Below are positions 13,926 to 22,932 of a DNA stretch of 64,000 nucleotides, piece by piece; within the stretch, counting starts at the first letter, position 1; every line of letters starts with the position of its first letter. Origin of the DNA: a virus; the UHGV virus genome UHGV-0098755; one strand, 5' to 3'. The notes beneath the pieces were generated by a model that did no database searches, had not been told where the DNA came from, and saw only the letters and a program-made list of their open reading frames with translations. Position numbers and translations under genes: made by a program.

Positions 13926-14411
13926 TCAAGTATTGTAAAACATTTGATTCAATCGCTTATATTGCCGAATCTTTTGGTCAGAAAAAGAAATTTGGGTTTC
14001 AAGCCATTCAATATATTCTGCCGCAGCTTGCATCAGGTTACCTTCATAGCCATCGTTATTTTCTTGTGCAGCTAATTTAGCTAATGCGTATGAAATACGT
14101 TCACCTTGAAAATCGGCTTTAGGTATTTGAACATCTTGACTAGTTCTCTCTACAACTTCTTCAATTTCGCCATTTTCAACGGATTCAGTATTCCATAAGC
14201 ACCAATACGTAATTGGCTTATCGTAGATGTTAATAATCTTTCCATCAGAAAGTTCAATTTCAATAATTCCAGTATCAGGTTCTATATCATCTTCGCATTC
14301 TTTTGCAAGTTCACGAACTTTAAAGACAGTACCTGCACTAAGTTCCGGCCAGTAATTACATAGCCCTCTATCAGCACGATTAATTCTAAACCACTTATCT
14401 ACTGTAATCAT
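13926..14411 (-). CDS. pin: Pin (protease inhibitor)-like protein
   Basis: Size (161 aa from Met7) and position next to gene 49 as in T4; no sequence check possible. Confidence 0.45.
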   Translation of the reverse strand: MITVDKWFRINRADRGLCNYWPELSAGTVFKVRELAKECEDDIEPDTGIIEIELSDGKIINIYDKPITYWCLWNTESVENGEIEEVVERTSQDVQIPKADFQGERISYALAKLAAQENNDGYEGNLMQAAAEYIEWLETQISFSDQKIRQYKRLNQMFYNT

Positions 14412-14534
14412 GTCCCATCTCCATATCAATTAAGTCATTTATCGTTGGTTCATTATATACTGTTTCTTCATCAGTGTAAACCGGTTCTTCCGGCTCTGGC
14501 TCTACAGTTTCCCATCTAGCCGCCCACCAAGGTT

Positions 14535-14855
14535 TTATAGCGTAATCCATTCTCGTACTGTCTGAGTTACTACACGTTCTCGAAGCTCAACCAGTTCAAC
14601 AGTAGGAACTGCATAATACCAGTCAGAATGGTAAGAACCTGAGCGAGATTCATTTACGGAAACATATACGTAGTGTTTTGGGCTAAAGTAAATTACTCGA
14701 CGATATTGGCATTTGCCTTGTTGAGTCCATTCTTCGGATTCAATCTGAATAAGATAGTCGGAAAAATCGAAATCATAGTTTTCCGAAAATGCATCATGGT
14801 CTTCGATGATTTCGCTCAGAACTGCATCAACATCTAATTTATTTTCAATAGTCAT
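14535..14855 (-). CDS. hypothetical protein (49.1 position)
   Basis: 106 aa ORF. Confidence 0.45.
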   Translation of the reverse strand: MTIENKLDVDAVLSEIIEDHDAFSENYDFDFSDYLIQIESEEWTQQGKCQYRRVIYFSPKHYVYVSVNESRSGSYHSDWYYAVPTVELVELRERVVTQTVREWITL

Positions 14856-14866
14856 TTTTTCACCAA

Positions 14867-15076
14867 TTAATTTCGCAATTTATTAAGTTCTTCATAATCA
14901 ATCCAGGATTCTAATCCTGATGGCAAATCAGATTCAATTTCACAAAGAAGCTCTTCAATTTTCTGAAGACGATCTAATTCTTCAGCTGGAATAGTAACCA
15001 TTGACGGAGTTCTTGATACACTAATATCGTAAATCATATTTACCCCAGTTTGACCATACAATCGCCATATTTCCAT
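14867..15076 (-). CDS. hypothetical protein (49.2 position)
   Basis: 69 aa ORF. Confidence 0.4.
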   Translation of the reverse strand: MEIWRLYGQTGVNMIYDISVSRTPSMVTIPAEELDRLQKIEELLCEIESDLPSGLESWIDYEELNKLRN

Positions 15077-15255
15077 TTAGAAATAGACTTTTCGCCGTTA
15101 GAATAATAAACTTCGAGTTTAGCGCGGCCATTTTTAATTTGAATAACCTTGGCTGTCATCAAAGTTCCATACCCATAGTAAACTGCAACTTCATCACCTA
15201 CATATACCGCGCTTCCGCGGTAATCATGGATATAATCAGTTCCTTCTAGCATCAT
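15040..15255 (-). CDS. hypothetical protein (49.3 position)
   Basis: 71 aa ORF. Confidence 0.4.
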   Translation of the reverse strand: MMLEGTDYIHDYRGSAVYVGDEVAVYYGYGTLMTAKVIQIKNGRAKLEVYYSNGEKSISKWKYGDCMVKLG

Positions 15256-15774: not shown

Positions 15775-16060
15775 ATCGGTGTTTACAATGGCGACATTTA
15801 TAACGAAGATTACTAGTCTGCCAATGAACTAATTGTACCTGTTCAGTACCGCATTCAGGACAATTAGGAACGTTTTTAGAAGCCCTTTCGCGACGTTTAA
15901 CCATGACCATTACAGAATCCCAATTAACAGGAGGGCTATAATCATCACAACCATGAATCTTTCCACGCATTTCCAAATCGTCTTCTTCACCGGCCATAAT
16001 AATTTTAATTAAACTGGAATTACTTGAAGCTGCAATGTCTTCTAATAGACGCTTTTTCAT
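15746..16060 (-). CDS. hypothetical zinc-ribbon protein
   Basis: 104 aa; CPECG...CRHC four-Cys motif. Confidence 0.45.
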
Positions 16061-16986
16061 TTCAATACCTCAATAGCATTACGTAAACCATTTGCTTTTG
16101 CATTAAGAGCTTTTAACAATTTGGTGTGTTCTGCAATTTGGGCTTCAACTTCAATCAAACGGGCATTGAGATATTCACGTTCTTCACTCAGATTATCAAC
16201 CTTTTCTGCTTTAGGTTCTTTTACAACTTGCTTATATGTATTAGGGTTCTTCAGTTTAATTAGAATGCGTGAACTGTACAGCATTGAACCATTATCTTCG
16301 GTTTCGTCATACATTTCCACTACGTCCATCATCTCCACCATCGTGCAGAGTTTATAAGACAACGAACGAATAATTTTGTTGTGCTTATTAATTTCTCTAG
16401 CTGTCATGGTGCCGAGATTACGTGAGTAATAATAAGGAACCTGGATATTAATTAATACTGATGAACCACCTGGCTTGTGTGTTACTTCATCAGCAATAAC
16501 CCAATCCTTAACATGAACTGTATTTGTACGGTCATCGCCCGCGGTAAATAGTTTACGAGCATGCTTAAAAAGCATATTCACTTGGTCATTGAATTGACAA
16601 GCGAATTTATCAGCAAATTTAGTTTCGGGAATGGTAGATAACCAATCAGCCAAATGGGTCTTTTTAACATCGTTAACAATAGTAAATTCAACCAAATCGG
16701 TTATAGATGTCTCAGATTTAATGAAGCTCGGCTTCATAAAGTTTTTAATGTTATCACTAGCTACAGTAGAAGATAACAGACGAGAACGTTTAAACCATTC
16801 AAGCAAATTACCTAACGAATGAGAATAAGCGTTTTGAGTATCTTTACAGATATGATTTTCCTGGCCAACATATTGAAGGAAATCACGAAGAATATTATTG
16901 ATTACTGCCCTGTGTCCTATCTGATAATTACGATGTTTAGTAATAAGACTGTCAAAATAATCAATATAATGTTTACGAGTTTTCAT
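16057..16986 (-). CDS. hypothetical protein, member of coiled-coil-tailed paralog array
   Basis: 309 aa; N-terminus MKTRKHYIDYF; C-terminal ~50 aa heptad coiled coil. Confidence 0.55.
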   Translation of the reverse strand: MKTRKHYIDYFDSLITKHRNYQIGHRAVINNILRDFLQYVGQENHICKDTQNAYSHSLGNLLEWFKRSRLLSSTVASDNIKNFMKPSFIKSETSITDLVEFTIVNDVKKTHLADWLSTIPETKFADKFACQFNDQVNMLFKHARKLFTAGDDRTNTVHVKDWVIADEVTHKPGGSSVLINIQVPYYYSRNLGTMTAREINKHNKIIRSLSYKLCTMVEMMDVVEMYDETEDNGSMLYSSRILIKLKNPNTYKQVVKEPKAEKVDNLSEEREYLNARLIEVEAQIAEHTKLLKALNAKANGLRNAIEVLK

Positions 16987-17038
16987 GTTCTTCTCACTTT
17001 GTTAATGATTTATACTCCGAGCCATCCTTGGCTTTAAA

Positions 17039-18040
17039 TTACTTAATTAACTGTAAAGCTTGTTCCAGACGATCAAGACGATTAACGGATTCTTCCCAAA
17101 TCTTTTTAGCCTGCTCATATTCTTTCTGCGCTTTATTAGAAATTTCTAGAACTTCTTTATAAGCTTTTTCTAGTGCAATAACTTCTGGACGAATTTCTAC
17201 CGGTTCAGGTGAATCATCAAGATTATCCATTAGTTCCTCAAGGGTAGTTTCTTCTTTAGGAGTATTCACAACTTCATCACATTTTTGTTGGTAAATTTCT
17301 TTATCAGTCGGTGAGTACGCGCACTTTACTTCACGAAGGCTAATTACGAGTTTATATCCTTCCCAACCGCATATATTCTTAAAAGGATATGTATGAATAT
17401 TTTCTACTGTTTCCATACAAAGTAATGCGGTCTCTAATTGACGAGTTATAGTACTAGCAATTGAGAAAAATTTATTAATATTCTTTTGGTTAGTTTCTGG
17501 TGTAAAAAATCCATAATTCACAAAAATAGATACTTTATTTTTATCAAGTTCATATTCTTTTATGATAATCATATCAGAAGCCAAAGGATGAATTTGACGA
17601 TAATCGCCATAACATAATTTAGAAGCTGATTTTAGAATCTGTCCTTTGAAAAGTCTGAAATTACTAATCCAACGACGAGTAAAAATATTCTCAGGGTCTT
17701 CTTTATTATTAAGATGATAAGAATTAACATCACCAAACCAATTATATCCTACTACATCTTTGGTTCGTTTAATTTCTTTCCCAAAATTACCAAGAATATC
17801 CCGATTAACCAAATATGAAAGAAGACGAGACTCTTTAAAGGTTTTCTTGATAAGATCTTTATCTACACGGCTAGAAATTTTACGAATTTCATGAATAAAT
17901 TTAGTAGAAGAAACAATACTTGCATCAACACTATTGAGCCATTGATTGATAATAGAAAGAACGATATTTTGACCAAACATCGGTATAGCTTTATCATCAA
18001 TAACGCTATTGAATGATTTGATATATTCGTTACGAGTCAT
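17039..18040 (-). CDS. hypothetical protein, member of coiled-coil-tailed paralog array
   Basis: Track ORF 17039..18070 trimmed to ATG (MTRNEYIKSF) preceded by GAGGAG; C-terminal coiled coil. Confidence 0.55.
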   Translation of the reverse strand: MTRNEYIKSFNSVIDDKAIPMFGQNIVLSIINQWLNSVDASIVSSTKFIHEIRKISSRVDKDLIKKTFKESRLLSYLVNRDILGNFGKEIKRTKDVVGYNWFGDVNSYHLNNKEDPENIFTRRWISNFRLFKGQILKSASKLCYGDYRQIHPLASDMIIIKEYELDKNKVSIFVNYGFFTPETNQKNINKFFSIASTITRQLETALLCMETVENIHTYPFKNICGWEGYKLVISLREVKCAYSPTDKEIYQQKCDEVVNTPKEETTLEELMDNLDDSPEPVEIRPEVIALEKAYKEVLEISNKAQKEYEQAKKIWEESVNRLDRLEQALQLIK

Positions 18041-18067
18041 ATTAATCTCCTCAGTAGAAAGTAAGAA

Positions 18068-18099
18068 CATTATACCACATCCTTGTGACGAAGTAAACT
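18068..18099 (-). promoter_or_regulatory. T4 early-type promoter
   Basis: GTTTAC -35, 17-18 nt spacer, TGGTATAAT extended -10. Confidence 0.5.
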
Positions 18100-19123
18100 A
18101 GTTTAGTGCATTTAGTGCATTGTTCAGTTTAGAACGCTGCTTTGTCAGATTTTGAACCCTTGACTGAGCTTGTTCTAACACCTTTTCAGCTTCTAGCACT
18201 TCATTGGTCGCTTTAACGAGTTCATCATCTACTGCCTTAAGAGACTTCTCAATCGCGTCAGCGTGCCATTTTTCAACAGGTTTAAGACTCGGATTTTCAA
18301 TAGGAAGAAAATTCACTTTATTGAATTTCCATGCATCCTTATTACCTGAACTATACATCCAAAATTTAGGATCGTTTGATAAGTAATTGGATAAATTTAA
18401 ATTTAAGTTATCTTGTACTTCTTGCTTTTTCTCTTGTGTAACTTCGTCCTTTCTCAAAAAATCATATTTAAATGAAACGATCATATCAAGTTCATATGTT
18501 GTCGTATCTAACTTAAATCGTTCAAAACGAGGTAAAATCTTAGATTGAACAGCAGAAACAACATCCATATACTTAAATGCTTCTGTCAACTGTGATTTAA
18601 GGCATTCACAAATTGAAAGAGAATTTTTAGTATTAGGCTTAAAGCTAATTCGTGCAGTTCTATTATTTTCTTTTAATGGTCTTACTTCCATTTGAAGAGT
18701 ATAACCATCAAATTTCAGATTCTTTAAGTTAATATCAGAACCTTTTAATCGACTAGCAGTAGACAAAATTTGTTTTAATTGTCTACGGAACAGAGCAATA
18801 AATCTCCATTCAAGACGATAATGATTTGGATTAAAAAATCCTGTTGATAAATCGACCTTACTTTGACCAACGCCTTGAACAAATAGAGGATTTTTATAAT
18901 CAACAGTTTTACAGAAATCGGTGAGCTGCTCACGAGCAGTCATTTGAGTAATATACCCCGCTTTACTAAAATGACGTAACCATTCACTGCTATTCATATA
19001 CTTAAAGTGAATATCACGATTAACTTTATCAGGGTCTAAATTATTTTGGCACAAAAATGTCATAACATCACGAGTATAACTGGCATTACGAACCATATCT
19101 TCAATTTGAGAACGAGTTTTCAT
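18098..19123 (-). CDS. hypothetical protein, member of coiled-coil-tailed paralog array
   Basis: 341 aa; N-terminus MKTRSQIEDMV; C-terminal coiled coil. Confidence 0.55.
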   Translation of the reverse strand: MKTRSQIEDMVRNASYTRDVMTFLCQNNLDPDKVNRDIHFKYMNSSEWLRHFSKAGYITQMTAREQLTDFCKTVDYKNPLFVQGVGQSKVDLSTGFFNPNHYRLEWRFIALFRRQLKQILSTASRLKGSDINLKNLKFDGYTLQMEVRPLKENNRTARISFKPNTKNSLSICECLKSQLTEAFKYMDVVSAVQSKILPRFERFKLDTTTYELDMIVSFKYDFLRKDEVTQEKKQEVQDNLNLNLSNYLSNDPKFWMYSSGNKDAWKFNKVNFLPIENPSLKPVEKWHADAIEKSLKAVDDELVKATNEVLEAEKVLEQAQSRVQNLTKQRSKLNNALNALN

Positions 19124-19131
19124 GGTGTTCC

Positions 19132-20043
19132 TTAAGATTTAAGTAAATCAACAATTTTAATTAATTTTTCACGCTCAGATTTAGCTTTACTACTCAATCC
19201 AGATAGTCTGAAAATTTCATCGTCATATTGTTGAATAGAAATATTCAGCTCTTCAATTTGCTTATTAAAATAATCAATTTGTTCAGAATGTTTTTCGTTA
19301 CTACGAACTGGTGCAGGTTTTGTAGGCAATTTAGTTGAACTGGATTCATCCGGGCGATAAATTAAAATACAACTTGAACCAATCGGACATTTAGCACCAG
19401 ACACATATTCTAATGTTCCAGCTTCTTTTAAAATTTCAAAAGCTAAACAGAGATGATGCCCCATATTAACATAATCTGTAGAGTGAGCTCTGACGTAATA
19501 ATCATCTCCACGAGTGCTAAATTTAAAGCATTTAAGGTCTTCTGTATTATTAGTTTTAAAAATCATTTGTTTATCTAGACCTTTAGCCAATCGAGCGCCT
19601 AATGCTAATAATCGTCGTTGATTTTCCCACAAATCTGCGATCATTTGGTCAAATGATAATTTCGGCATTAGTCGACCATAAAGGTCATATCCTTTATTAT
19701 AATTACGAAGGATTTCACTCGCGTTAATACGAGACAATGCTCCAATTTTATTAAGGGCTTTCATAATGCGATTAGATAAACCCATTCCAGACCCGTTTGT
19801 TCGCTGTAAATGTTTTTCTAATCCAAATCCAATATCAACTTTAAATTTATCTAAAATTTCAGCATGAACATCTCTGTCAATAACATTCAAATCCAAAGTT
19901 GGGTTAAATCTATGAAAAAATTTATCTGGCTCTCCACGACGAAGTACAGTCCATTCATTCATCATTTTTTTATTAACTAAAGATTTAATTACTGCATTGA
20001 CATTATTAATTACTACTGACATATTTTCCTCACTCAATTTCAA
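19132..20043 (-). CDS. hypothetical protein with C-terminal coiled coil
   Basis: 303 aa ORF. Confidence 0.5.
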   Translation of the reverse strand: MKLSEENMSVVINNVNAVIKSLVNKKMMNEWTVLRRGEPDKFFHRFNPTLDLNVIDRDVHAEILDKFKVDIGFGLEKHLQRTNGSGMGLSNRIMKALNKIGALSRINASEILRNYNKGYDLYGRLMPKLSFDQMIADLWENQRRLLALGARLAKGLDKQMIFKTNNTEDLKCFKFSTRGDDYYVRAHSTDYVNMGHHLCLAFEILKEAGTLEYVSGAKCPIGSSCILIYRPDESSSTKLPTKPAPVRSNEKHSEQIDYFNKQIEELNISIQQYDDEIFRLSGLSSKAKSEREKLIKIVDLLKS

Positions 20044-20492: not shown

Positions 20493-21020
20493 TTATGCGA
20501 GTACCGTCTTTAACCGTTCTTCAAACTTCCGAAGAGTATTTTGGCGTTCAGCTCTTTGCTTTTTGTAAGTTTCAATACGCTCTGAAATGAGAGTGTATCG
20601 TTCATTTACTGATTCTTTCATAAAATCAGGAATTTCACGAGAAGCTTTAATCTCGTCAAATTTATCAATAACAGCTTGCTCTTCAGCAATTAAGTTATCA
20701 TACATCAAAATATCTTTCTTGATGAACTCAATATCTTCTTGAGTTACACGAGATAATTTAGATGCTTTATCCTTTTTGTACTGTTCGTTAGTATCACGAG
20801 ACCAGTGTAATGTACGATTTTTATTCGTATTCTTGTAAATTTCTACAATACCAATCTCATCAATAATAACGATCCAATTCCAGCGGGATTTGTAAATTTG
20901 TCCTCCATCAACAGTGATTTCACCTCCGATTGAGATGTCGTTAAAGAACTTGCTTTGTGCTTCAGATTTAAATTTACCATCGTTGTAATTTACCAAGTTG
21001 AAAATATCTTTAGCGTTCAT
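20493..21020 (-). CDS. hypothetical protein
   Basis: 175 aa ORF with early promoter-like element upstream. Confidence 0.5.
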   Translation of the reverse strand: MNAKDIFNLVNYNDGKFKSEAQSKFFNDISIGGEITVDGGQIYKSRWNWIVIIDEIGIVEIYKNTNKNRTLHWSRDTNEQYKKDKASKLSRVTQEDIEFIKKDILMYDNLIAEEQAVIDKFDEIKASREIPDFMKESVNERYTLISERIETYKKQRAERQNTLRKFEERLKTVLA

Positions 21021-21484: not shown

Positions 21485-22465
21485 TTATTTTAGAAGAGTA
21501 ACCTCAGCAATTTCTTCCCAACCATTTTTGTCGGTCATAATAAAGTCAGCAAGATAAAGAGCAGTACGCAGTGAAACATTGCGTAAACGATTAACATTAA
21601 CTTTCATCCATGATAATGCTTTATAAGTTTCTTCATCAGAAAGACCGCGCTTTTGCATCATGTCAGTTGAAAGAATAACATCTTCAACCCTGACCATAAT
21701 TTCTTCATTAGTGTGAACACCCAAATCTAAATAAACCGAGCGGGACACTAATGCTTGTAAGTGTGGAGCAAGTTTAGTACCACGGTCTAATTCGCGGTCA
21801 ATGTCAACGTTTGTGATAAAAACAATCGTTCCTTTAAATTCAAACTCACGGTCAATGCCTTTTTCTTCTAAGTAAGAAGATGCAGTGCTCCAGCAGACTT
21901 TACGGGTCTCTCCAGTGTCCAGAGCAGCTTTTAGAAGATTAAGAATGTCCATATCAGAGAAAACATCCACATCATCAATCAAAAGGACAGAATTCTCTTC
22001 ACGATTATTCCAAAGCTGTTCATAAAGACCAATACCAGAGATTTTACCATTAATGCTTTTATATTCAATGTATCCATTATCATTTGCTTTATTTAAAGCT
22101 TTATCTAAAGAATACGTTTTACCAATACCTGCTGCGCCAGAGATAATTAATGAACGAATATTTCCATTAATAATACCATTCGTCATCATTCCCATAACAT
22201 TAAATCTTTTATTAATGCGGGTTTTCATATCTTCATACGATTCTTTAACTTCTTCAACTTTTACACCATCATATGAAATATCTGATTTGTAAACCCAAAC
22301 ACCGCGACGTTTACCGTCAATTTCAACAAAAACTTTACCATCTCCTTGTGCATCTACCGGAGCATTATCTGGGAACCATTCGCCTAAGAGCTCAAAAGTT
22401 CCAGAGATTTCTTTACCGAAGTAGATACCCTTATTGATAGTTACAGTTTTCATTTTATTCTCCAA
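21485..22465 (-). CDS. P-loop NTPase (AAA-like) of unknown function
   Basis: 326 aa; Walker A SGAAGIGKT and Walker B VLLIDDVD. Confidence 0.6.
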   Translation of the reverse strand: MENKMKTVTINKGIYFGKEISGTFELLGEWFPDNAPVDAQGDGKVFVEIDGKRRGVWVYKSDISYDGVKVEEVKESYEDMKTRINKRFNVMGMMTNGIINGNIRSLIISGAAGIGKTYSLDKALNKANDNGYIEYKSINGKISGIGLYEQLWNNREENSVLLIDDVDVFSDMDILNLLKAALDTGETRKVCWSTASSYLEEKGIDREFEFKGTIVFITNVDIDRELDRGTKLAPHLQALVSRSVYLDLGVHTNEEIMVRVEDVILSTDMMQKRGLSDEETYKALSWMKVNVNRLRNVSLRTALYLADFIMTDKNGWEEIAEVTLLK

Positions 22466-22522: not shown

Positions 22523-22786
22523 TTATTTTAATGTTTGCCAAATTTTTACTGCTTCGCGACGAGATACTTCTACGGCGCCAAGTTCTATAGCTTTTTGGCG
22601 TCGCCGAGCGTGTAAGTCATAATGTTTAATGCGTTTATCTTGAAACCAAGAACGTTTCATTCCTATTGCTTCTGCCATTTCGTGAAGCTCTTCAATATCT
22701 CCATCAGTGAACATATGACAATTTTTAGTTGGATGACCGCGAAGTTTCCATCCATGATTCATTAAAACATCTACGTAAACTGTCAT
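22523..22786 (-). CDS. hypothetical protein (nrdC.11 position)
   Basis: 87 aa ORF. Confidence 0.45.
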   Translation of the reverse strand: MTVYVDVLMNHGWKLRGHPTKNCHMFTDGDIEELHEMAEAIGMKRSWFQDKRIKHYDLHARRRQKAIELGAVEVSRREAVKIWQTLK

Positions 22787-22932
22787 TGATTCTTCTCCAA
22801 ATAAGTTTCGATAATTTTCTGGGCGAGATAAACCGCGTTATCTTCAGTTGCGTCTTCTAAGAAACTTTCAAAACACTCTGAAATTTCTTCTGTATCAATC
22901 AACTTTTTTACTTCAATTGGTGTAATTTTCAT
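22784..22932 (-). CDS. hypothetical small protein
   Basis: 49 aa ORF (below track cutoff) read by hand; stop overlaps next gene's ATG. Confidence 0.3.

Follow-up and report, generated by a model that had tools for sequence, protein, structure and literature searches.

The nrdC.3 to nrdC.6 array of a T4-like phage: one superfamily of modular early proteins with a possible role in counterdefense

The window analyzed here is a stretch of 64,000 nucleotides from UHGV virus genome UHGV-0098755, and the element in question is an array of four adjacent minus-strand genes that correspond to nrdC.3, nrdC.4, nrdC.5, and nrdC.6 of phage T4. According to sequence comparison, a single early gene, specific to phages, gave rise to all four by tandem duplication and divergence. 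An earlier note on this DNA had described them as a paralogous family with variable bodies and a conserved oligomerization tail. The genes have long been catalogued, and a phenotype has been published for one of them; the new finding is that the four form a single superfamily with a modular plan and an arms-race type of evolution. In the literature on nrdC.3, nrdC.4, nrdC.6, DUF7235, and anti-Dsr1, we found no account of the paralogy, of the architecture, or of how the proteins act.

Although no phage has been studied better than T4, these four early proteins of 300 to 340 amino acids have been called "hypothetical" for some thirty years. The link to the phenotype of nrdC.5 makes nrdC.3, nrdC.4, and nrdC.6 concrete candidates for counterdefense genes, and the modular plan points to a probable specificity site, the hypervariable central module, and a probable constant part, the tail. 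Since genomes that are nearly identical elsewhere carry sharply different alleles of these genes, the family could also help to account for host range differences among therapeutic T4-like phages.

Homology and modular plan of the four proteins

All-versus-all comparison with BLAST, hidden Markov models (HMMs), and hhalign links all four genes. The paralogy is stronger than the earlier note had proposed, as the homology goes beyond the ends of the proteins and runs through the whole body. Using blastp, nrdC.3 and nrdC.4 align with an E value of 4e-7 (26% identity over 226 amino acids), and both belong to PHROG 1435. The HMM of the nrdC.4 family matches nrdC.3 at an E value of 4e-18 and the distant members P0234 and P0236 at 8e-9 and 4e-5, respectively, and the HMM of the nrdC.5 family matches P0235 at 1.4e-5 and P0236 at 2e-3. 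In the decoy control, with 2550 shuffled sequences, the best E value was 0.1. P0235 and P0236, each matched by the HMMs of both families, bridge the nrdC.4 and nrdC.5 families. When only the bodies of these two families were compared with hhalign, the score was 36.4, compared to 13.4 ± 2.0 for column shuffles (z 11.7).

The link with nrdC.6, the most divergent paralogue, emerged only against a pool of the other families plus the distant members. The nrdC.6 HMM alone matched no other family above the decoys, and pairwise hhalign comparisons of the nrdC.6 family with the others were marginal (z of 2 to 3). Compared with the pooled non-nrdC.6 members, nrdC.6 gave an hhalign probability of 83%, an E value of 8.5e-6, and a score of 46.6 (z 14.9; shuffles 13.6 ± 2.2, with a maximum of 21.4), and the 141 collinear columns run through all three of the motifs that characterize the body. 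These motifs are in register across all 28 sequences in a MAFFT alignment: M1 is [KR]-x-[RG]-h-h-[ST]-x-h-x-[AN]-[RS]-[DE]-x-[IL]-x-[ND]-[FY], M2 is W/F..F.....hL..A.+L..G, and M3 is qL..Ah..M..V. Similarity of the body and the presence of M1, M2, and M3 in this order define the superfamily, and both were found in all four proteins, whose identity to one another is 12 to 26%. The related starts that had been noticed before are indeed present in nrdC.3, nrdC.4, and nrdC.5, as M(K)TR..[YI]I, and are missing from nrdC.6; the distant members P0227, P0234, and P0236 also have this start. Among the open reading frames (ORFs) of the 64-kb window, the superfamily HMM found no member beyond the four. 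The nrdC.8 gene (20493-21020, minus strand, 175 amino acids), two genes upstream of the array, encodes a heptad-like C-terminal helix at residues 136 to 175 (P = 0.007 versus shuffles). It was considered as a fifth member and rejected, as the superfamily HMMs do not match it.

AlphaFold2 models were made for nrdC.5 (predicted local distance difference test score [pLDDT] of 70 and predicted template modeling score [pTM] of 0.56) and nrdC.6 (pLDDT of 77 and pTM of 0.64). The order of elements is alike in both models, which begin with a helical N-terminal domain, with M1 as its helix-turn-helix, and continue with the long kinked M2 helix, a β-hairpin, the M3 helix, another β-hairpin, and a linker of low confidence before the single long C-terminal helix. 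The linker takes up 55 residues in nrdC.5 (disordered, residues 227 to 281) and 15 in nrdC.6, and the modeled C-terminal helix covers residues 282 to 340 and 243 to 295, respectively. Over the aligned body columns, the agreement in secondary structure between the two models is 0.62, compared to 0.36 ± 0.08 for circular shifts. The common plan is a helical N-terminal domain with a helix-turn-helix, a central α/β module, a flexible linker, and a heptad helix. A Foldseek search of BFVD with the nrdC.5 model returned uncharacterized proteins of 300 to 374 amino acids from T4-like phages of Erwinia, Klebsiella, Pectobacterium, Acinetobacter, Yersinia, and Aeromonas (E values of 1.8e-7 to 6e-4), as well as the nrdC.6 protein of Shigella phage Sf25 (E value of 1.1e-3). 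Because the structures in BFVD were predicted independently, these matches are independent support for a shared fold. Scans of the four proteins against Pfam, NCBIfam, and PHROG gave only domains of unknown function (DUFs) and families of unknown function. A search of PDB with the superfamily profiles had a designed repeat protein as its sole match, with no solved relative, and no known fold or solved structure matched convincingly.

All four proteins end in a heptad tail of about 50 amino acids, as the earlier note had claimed. We compared the heptad a/d score in windows of 28 amino acids with that of shuffled sequences, and in nrdC.3, nrdC.5, and nrdC.6 the score exceeded 95% of the shuffles solely in the tails (P of 0.003 to 0.010). 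The nrdC.4 score is weaker and fails this test (P = 0.11), because tyrosine, tryptophan, and serine sit at some core positions; its helix is recognized by register and conservation. Each tail has a single unbroken heptad register, anchored on a C-terminal h-x-x-L-K (L-x-x-A/V-[IL]-x-x-L-K). The helix of 45 to 60 amino acids follows a low-complexity or disordered linker and has the a/d periodicity of a canonical coiled coil over at least four heptads without helix breakers. A tail with h-x-x-L-K is also present in the distant members P0234, P0235, and P0236 and in CC31p082.

The heptad tail and its common register are the part of the "conserved oligomerization tail" that holds for all four proteins. 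Conservation of the tail in sequence across the paralogues was rejected, as the comparison of tail profiles between families is weak or absent (z of 0 to 3), and only 4 to 9 of 45 residues are identical. Within orthologous lineages, the tail is 57 to 74% identical, versus 28 to 54% for the body. Invariant runs extend outside the a/d positions, such as DDEIFRL in the nrdC.6 tail, and the nrdC.4 tail contains a nearly invariant WEES.NRLD.LEQAL with conservative substitutions. The tail thus appears to be a shared device with a paralogue-specific sequence. Because the tails differ between paralogues while they are conserved within lineages, this pattern would favor homotypic or partner-specific tails over hetero-oligomerization.

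Rapid evolution, variable copy number, and dispensability

The distribution of the family was determined with HMMER by an exhaustive search of 1.84 billion representative proteins with a superfamily profile that lacked the tail. This yielded 16 clusters in total, including the distant P0234, P0235, and P0236. Where a source is named, the close members belong to T4-like phages or to bacterial assemblies in which such phage sequence is present. The distant clusters match T4-like phages only (of Klebsiella, Raoultella, Enterobacter, Cronobacter, and related hosts), with relatives that are 22 to 27% identical. The family appears to be confined to T4-like phages. Copy number varies from one to four, with four genes in Tequatrovirus, three each in Mosigvirus and Gaprivervirus, and a single gene, directly upstream of nrdC.2, in Karamvirus CC31. 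The C6-type, C5-type, and C3/4-type lineages are found in an unchanged order in three genera. Identity between genera is 23 to 51% for the family genes, whereas it is 79 to 90% for the neighboring nrdC.10, nrdC.8, and nrdC genes.

Hundreds of phage genomes carry all four ORFs in intact, full-length form. In the window, nrdC.4 is 97.6% identical to its T4 counterpart and nrdC.5 is 95% identical over its full length. The nrdC.3 gene is 60% identical to T4 nrdC.3 and 77% identical to the Mosigvirus orthologue, and its flanking genes nrdC.2 and nrdC.4 are 96 to 98% identical to those of T4. In a pairwise alignment with the T4 allele (L001, 9035-9961), the first 73 and the last 45 residues are similar, and the divergence is concentrated in the central α/β module. 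This suggests that nrdC.3 is a mosaic which may have arisen by cassette exchange between genera. Phage ACG-C40 (L006, 4805-5216) carries a natural deletion that runs from nrdC.5 to the tail of nrdC.3, so that nrdC.4 and most of nrdC.3 and nrdC.5 are missing. In P0120, nrdC.5 and nrdC.3 are fused in frame at a short (K/Q)VN microhomology, and P0122, the nrdC.6 protein of Shigella phage Sf25, has an internal tandem duplication of 82 amino acids. The genes of this family evolve rapidly, vary in copy number, and are dispensable.

Counterdefense and alternative functions

For one of the four genes, a function is known. In an evolution experiment, a T4 clone lost genes, and its infection of E. coli ECOR17 was blocked by dsr1, an abortive-infection defense gene with a SIR2 domain (PMC9391042; Srikant, Guegler, and Laub, eLife 2022). 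Expression of T4 nrdC.5 restored plating of the deletion clone on Escherichia coli MG1655 carrying dsr1 (PMC9391042). The nrdC.5 gene of the window is the orthologue of this anti-Dsr1 gene, with 95% protein identity and a locus that likewise lies between nrdC.6 and nrdC.4. The statement in the earlier note that the function of the family is unknown is therefore outdated for nrdC.5. The targets of the paralogues need not be Dsr1, because these proteins are only 12 to 26% identical and have different tails.

A few genes away, gp49.2 is encoded, which in T6 was reported in 2026 to inhibit the OLD defense (PMC13096335). Because of this nearby inhibitor, the stretch around the array may be a counterdefense neighborhood, rich in such genes. 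Downstream of nrdC, at 13926-15255 on the minus strand, the window has small ORFs and an ORF of 167 amino acids where relatives have gene 49.x ORFs and pin. The text of the EVADES catalogue of anti-defense genes makes no mention of NrdC.

The explanation that we favor, and to which we give even chances, is that the whole family consists of modular early counterdefense proteins. Early in infection, when the late phage proteins that could trigger defense are not yet made, the fast-evolving central module would bind and block an immune sensor or effector of the host. For nrdC.5 the target would be Dsr1, blocked before NAD+ is depleted, and nrdC.3, nrdC.4, and nrdC.6 would target other defense proteins or variants of them. 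The paralogue-specific coiled coil would form a homo-oligomer or dock to an invariant partner, and this could provide avidity against oligomeric defense proteins. Direct binding, the part that binds, oligomerization, and an anti-defense role of nrdC.3, nrdC.4, and nrdC.6 are what we infer, and these details of mechanism are less certain than the anti-defense reading of the family as a whole. Several points weigh against this explanation. A phenotype is known for nrdC.5 only and comes from one experiment in one paper. Both AlphaFold2 models share a merged alignment of the four families, which makes their similar topology partly circular, and their confidence is moderate. Each lineage conserves its tail better than its body, which could mean that the tail is a functional interface rather than a passive oligomerization device. 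Finally, the proteins are mostly basic (net charge of +6 for nrdC.3, -1 for nrdC.4, +11 for nrdC.5, and +8 for nrdC.6), which would also fit binding of nucleic acids.

This last point leads to the idea that the proteins are DNA- or RNA-binding regulators of host takeover or nucleoid-associated factors, and that the rescue from Dsr1 was indirect, for example, through altered expression of a trigger. Three of the four proteins are basic, and M1 is modeled as a helix-turn-helix in both models. Coiled-coil tails are common in dimeric nucleic-acid-binding proteins. We still consider this idea unlikely, as no DNA-binding family was matched in Pfam, NCBIfam, or PHROG and no fold supports it, and for core regulators it would be unusual that the genes are dispensable, are deleted in natural phages, and evolve faster than their neighbors. 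A DNA-mimic anti-restriction protein of the Ocr or Arn type was also considered and was rejected on the charge, as a strongly acidic surface is lacking. That the other copies are neutral or decaying duplicates, drifting remnants in a hyperplastic region with nrdC.5 as the only functional gene, would agree with the variable copy number, the losses in ACG-C40, and the fusion P0120. Such decay is very improbable in view of the intact, full-length ORFs in hundreds of genomes, the three lineages that three genera have retained in an unchanged order, and the conservation of motifs and tails within each lineage.

The better conservation of orthologous tails than of bodies, together with the invariant tail runs beyond the a/d positions in nrdC.6 and nrdC.4, could also mean that the tail docks to an invariant host or phage machine, such as a protease or chaperone, and that the body brings in a target for degradation or sequestration. 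The Lon inhibitor Pin is encoded close by in relatives, which was counted for such an adaptor family. It remains an improbable explanation, as the differences between paralogue tails would require four docking partners, or self-association, and no degron-like or adaptor family was detected in the family scans. Another possibility is that the central module mimics a tail terminator or completion protein and occupies a defense sensor without activating it, like DSAD1, an SPbeta-phage inhibitor of the defense protein DSR2. According to the available abstracts, DSR2 is activated by a tail tube protein and blocked by DSAD1, and the nrdC.5 model matched "tail completion proteins" in BFVD, with low scores (E values of 0.02 to 0.05). 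The chances of this seem slim, since the terminator fold seen with the nrdC.5 model was not reproduced with the nrdC.6 model, no tail-terminator family was present among Pfam matches at E values up to 1, and no description of a Dsr1 trigger was found in the literature examined. A more elaborate version is one that we regard as a long shot. The conserved N-terminal domain and the lineage-specific coiled coil would be a reusable scaffold that carries an exchangeable α/β cassette imitating a neck or tail protein. The product would be an early, nonactivating decoy for sensors of late structural proteins, with Dsr1 as its first known target, and it could be rearmed by cassette swaps between alleles and genera, as the mosaic nrdC.3 allele suggests.

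Locus, neighboring genes, and comparison with known systems

When the 3987 bases of the four-gene array were compared with phage records, 653 of these matched, the top match being 97.7% identical. The window is part of a Tequatrovirus (T4-like) genome. T4 record U76612 supplies the names nrdC.3, nrdC.4, nrdC.5, and nrdC.6 for the four minus-strand ORFs, and comparison with this T4 region showed the same four genes. In that record the array is followed downstream by nrdC.2, nrdC.1, and nrdC, which encodes thioredoxin, and the same synteny was found in the Straboviridae. The four adjacent ORFs had been placed correctly in the earlier note; only the start of nrdC.6 had to be refined. The ORF of 303 amino acids begins at a TTG at 20043, which overlaps nrdC.7, and most likely the true start is the ATG at 20022 (MSVVIN...), because T4 and all homologues start there. 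For nrdC.4, the start that gives 333 amino acids is correct, since the ATG farther upstream, at 18070, falls within a promoter-like site (Table 1).

The early expression that had been assumed is supported by the annotation of T4 and by the wording of PMC9391042. In U76612, early promoters are annotated before nrdC.8 and before nrdC.4, and the promoter-like site at 18097-18069, in the gap between nrdC.5 and nrdC.4, is the counterpart of T4 "early promoter 50.0."

Table 1. Positions of the genes, modules, and promoter-like site of the nrdC.3 to nrdC.6 array in the window
Feature	Positions	Strand	Remarks
nrdC.3	16057-16986	-	ORF of 309 amino acids; PHROG 1435, E 9e-116
nrdC.3 C-terminal heptad helix	16060-16212	-	About residues 259-309; score P = 0.010 at 259-299
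nrdC.3 hypervariable central α/β module	16237-16764	-	About residues 75-250; from pairwise alignment of T4 and window alleles
nrdC.4	17039-18040	-	333 amino acids from MTRNEY; longest ORF 343 amino acids; Pfam PF26897 (precomputed)
nrdC.4 C-terminal heptad helix	17042-17191	-	About residues 284-333; register and near-invariant tail; score P = 0.11
Sigma-70-type promoter-like site	18069-18097	-	TTTACT, 17-nucleotide spacer, TATAAT, with TG
nrdC.5	18098-19123	-	ORF of 341 amino acids; Pfam DUF7235, E 6e-121
nrdC.5 C-terminal heptad helix	18101-18280	-	Residues 282-341; score P = 0.003 at 285-341
nrdC.6	19132-20022	-	296 amino acids from ATG; PHROG 2257; most divergent paralogue
nrdC.6 C-terminal heptad helix	19135-19296	-	Residues 243-296; score P = 0.003 at 240-275

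Some observations concern the neighboring genes. Automated annotation in phage records calls the neighbors nrdC.1 to nrdC.11, including these four genes, "thioredoxin." This looks like an artifact of the gene names, because none of the genes labeled in this way has a thioredoxin domain match. The nrdC.10 gene (21485-22465, minus strand, 326 amino acids) has a Walker A-like motif, GAAGIGKT, and is 73 to 79% identical between genera, unlike the variable array that adjoins it. Just upstream of nrdC.10 are ORFs of 87 amino acids (22523-22786, minus strand) and 49 amino acids (22783-22932, minus strand), and T4 U76612 lacks both at this place. At the matching position, phage ACG-C40 annotates an ORF of the same length (87 amino acids) as a DUF4031 protein, a match by length and position.

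Pfam and PHROG divide the four genes among three or four distinct families whose function is unknown, with nrdC.5 in DUF7235 (PF23882) and PHROG 2351, nrdC.4 in PF26897, nrdC.6 in PF26899 and PHROG 2257, and nrdC.3 together with nrdC.4 in PHROG 1435. Here they are joined as one superfamily with a common architecture. Compared with T4 NrdC.5, the nrdC.5 gene of the window is the orthologue and nrdC.3, nrdC.4, and nrdC.6 are paralogues; the T4 paper reports the rescue phenotype only, without domain analysis, paralogy, or mechanism (PMC9391042). The closest functional analogy for NrdC.5, as far as the abstracts on DSAD1 describe it, is this protein, which also suppresses a SIR2-domain NADase defense. 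DSAD1 comes from a Bacillus phage, no sequence relationship between it and NrdC.5 was found, and it was absent from the fold matches in BFVD and PDB. In contrast to the lambda gpU-like (DUF3168) tail terminators, the nrdC proteins are early and nonstructural and have a coiled-coil tail and, at the N terminus, an additional domain. Other anti-defense genes of T-even phages (the dmd, tifA, and adfA island, gp49.2, and IPI-III) are likewise nonessential early genes in hyperplastic regions; like the array, they vary among related phages and are subject to loss or amplification under selection (PMC9391042, PMC13096335). Whereas those genes are mostly small and single copy, nrdC.3 to nrdC.6 encode multidomain proteins of 300 to 340 amino acids and form a tandem array of up to four.

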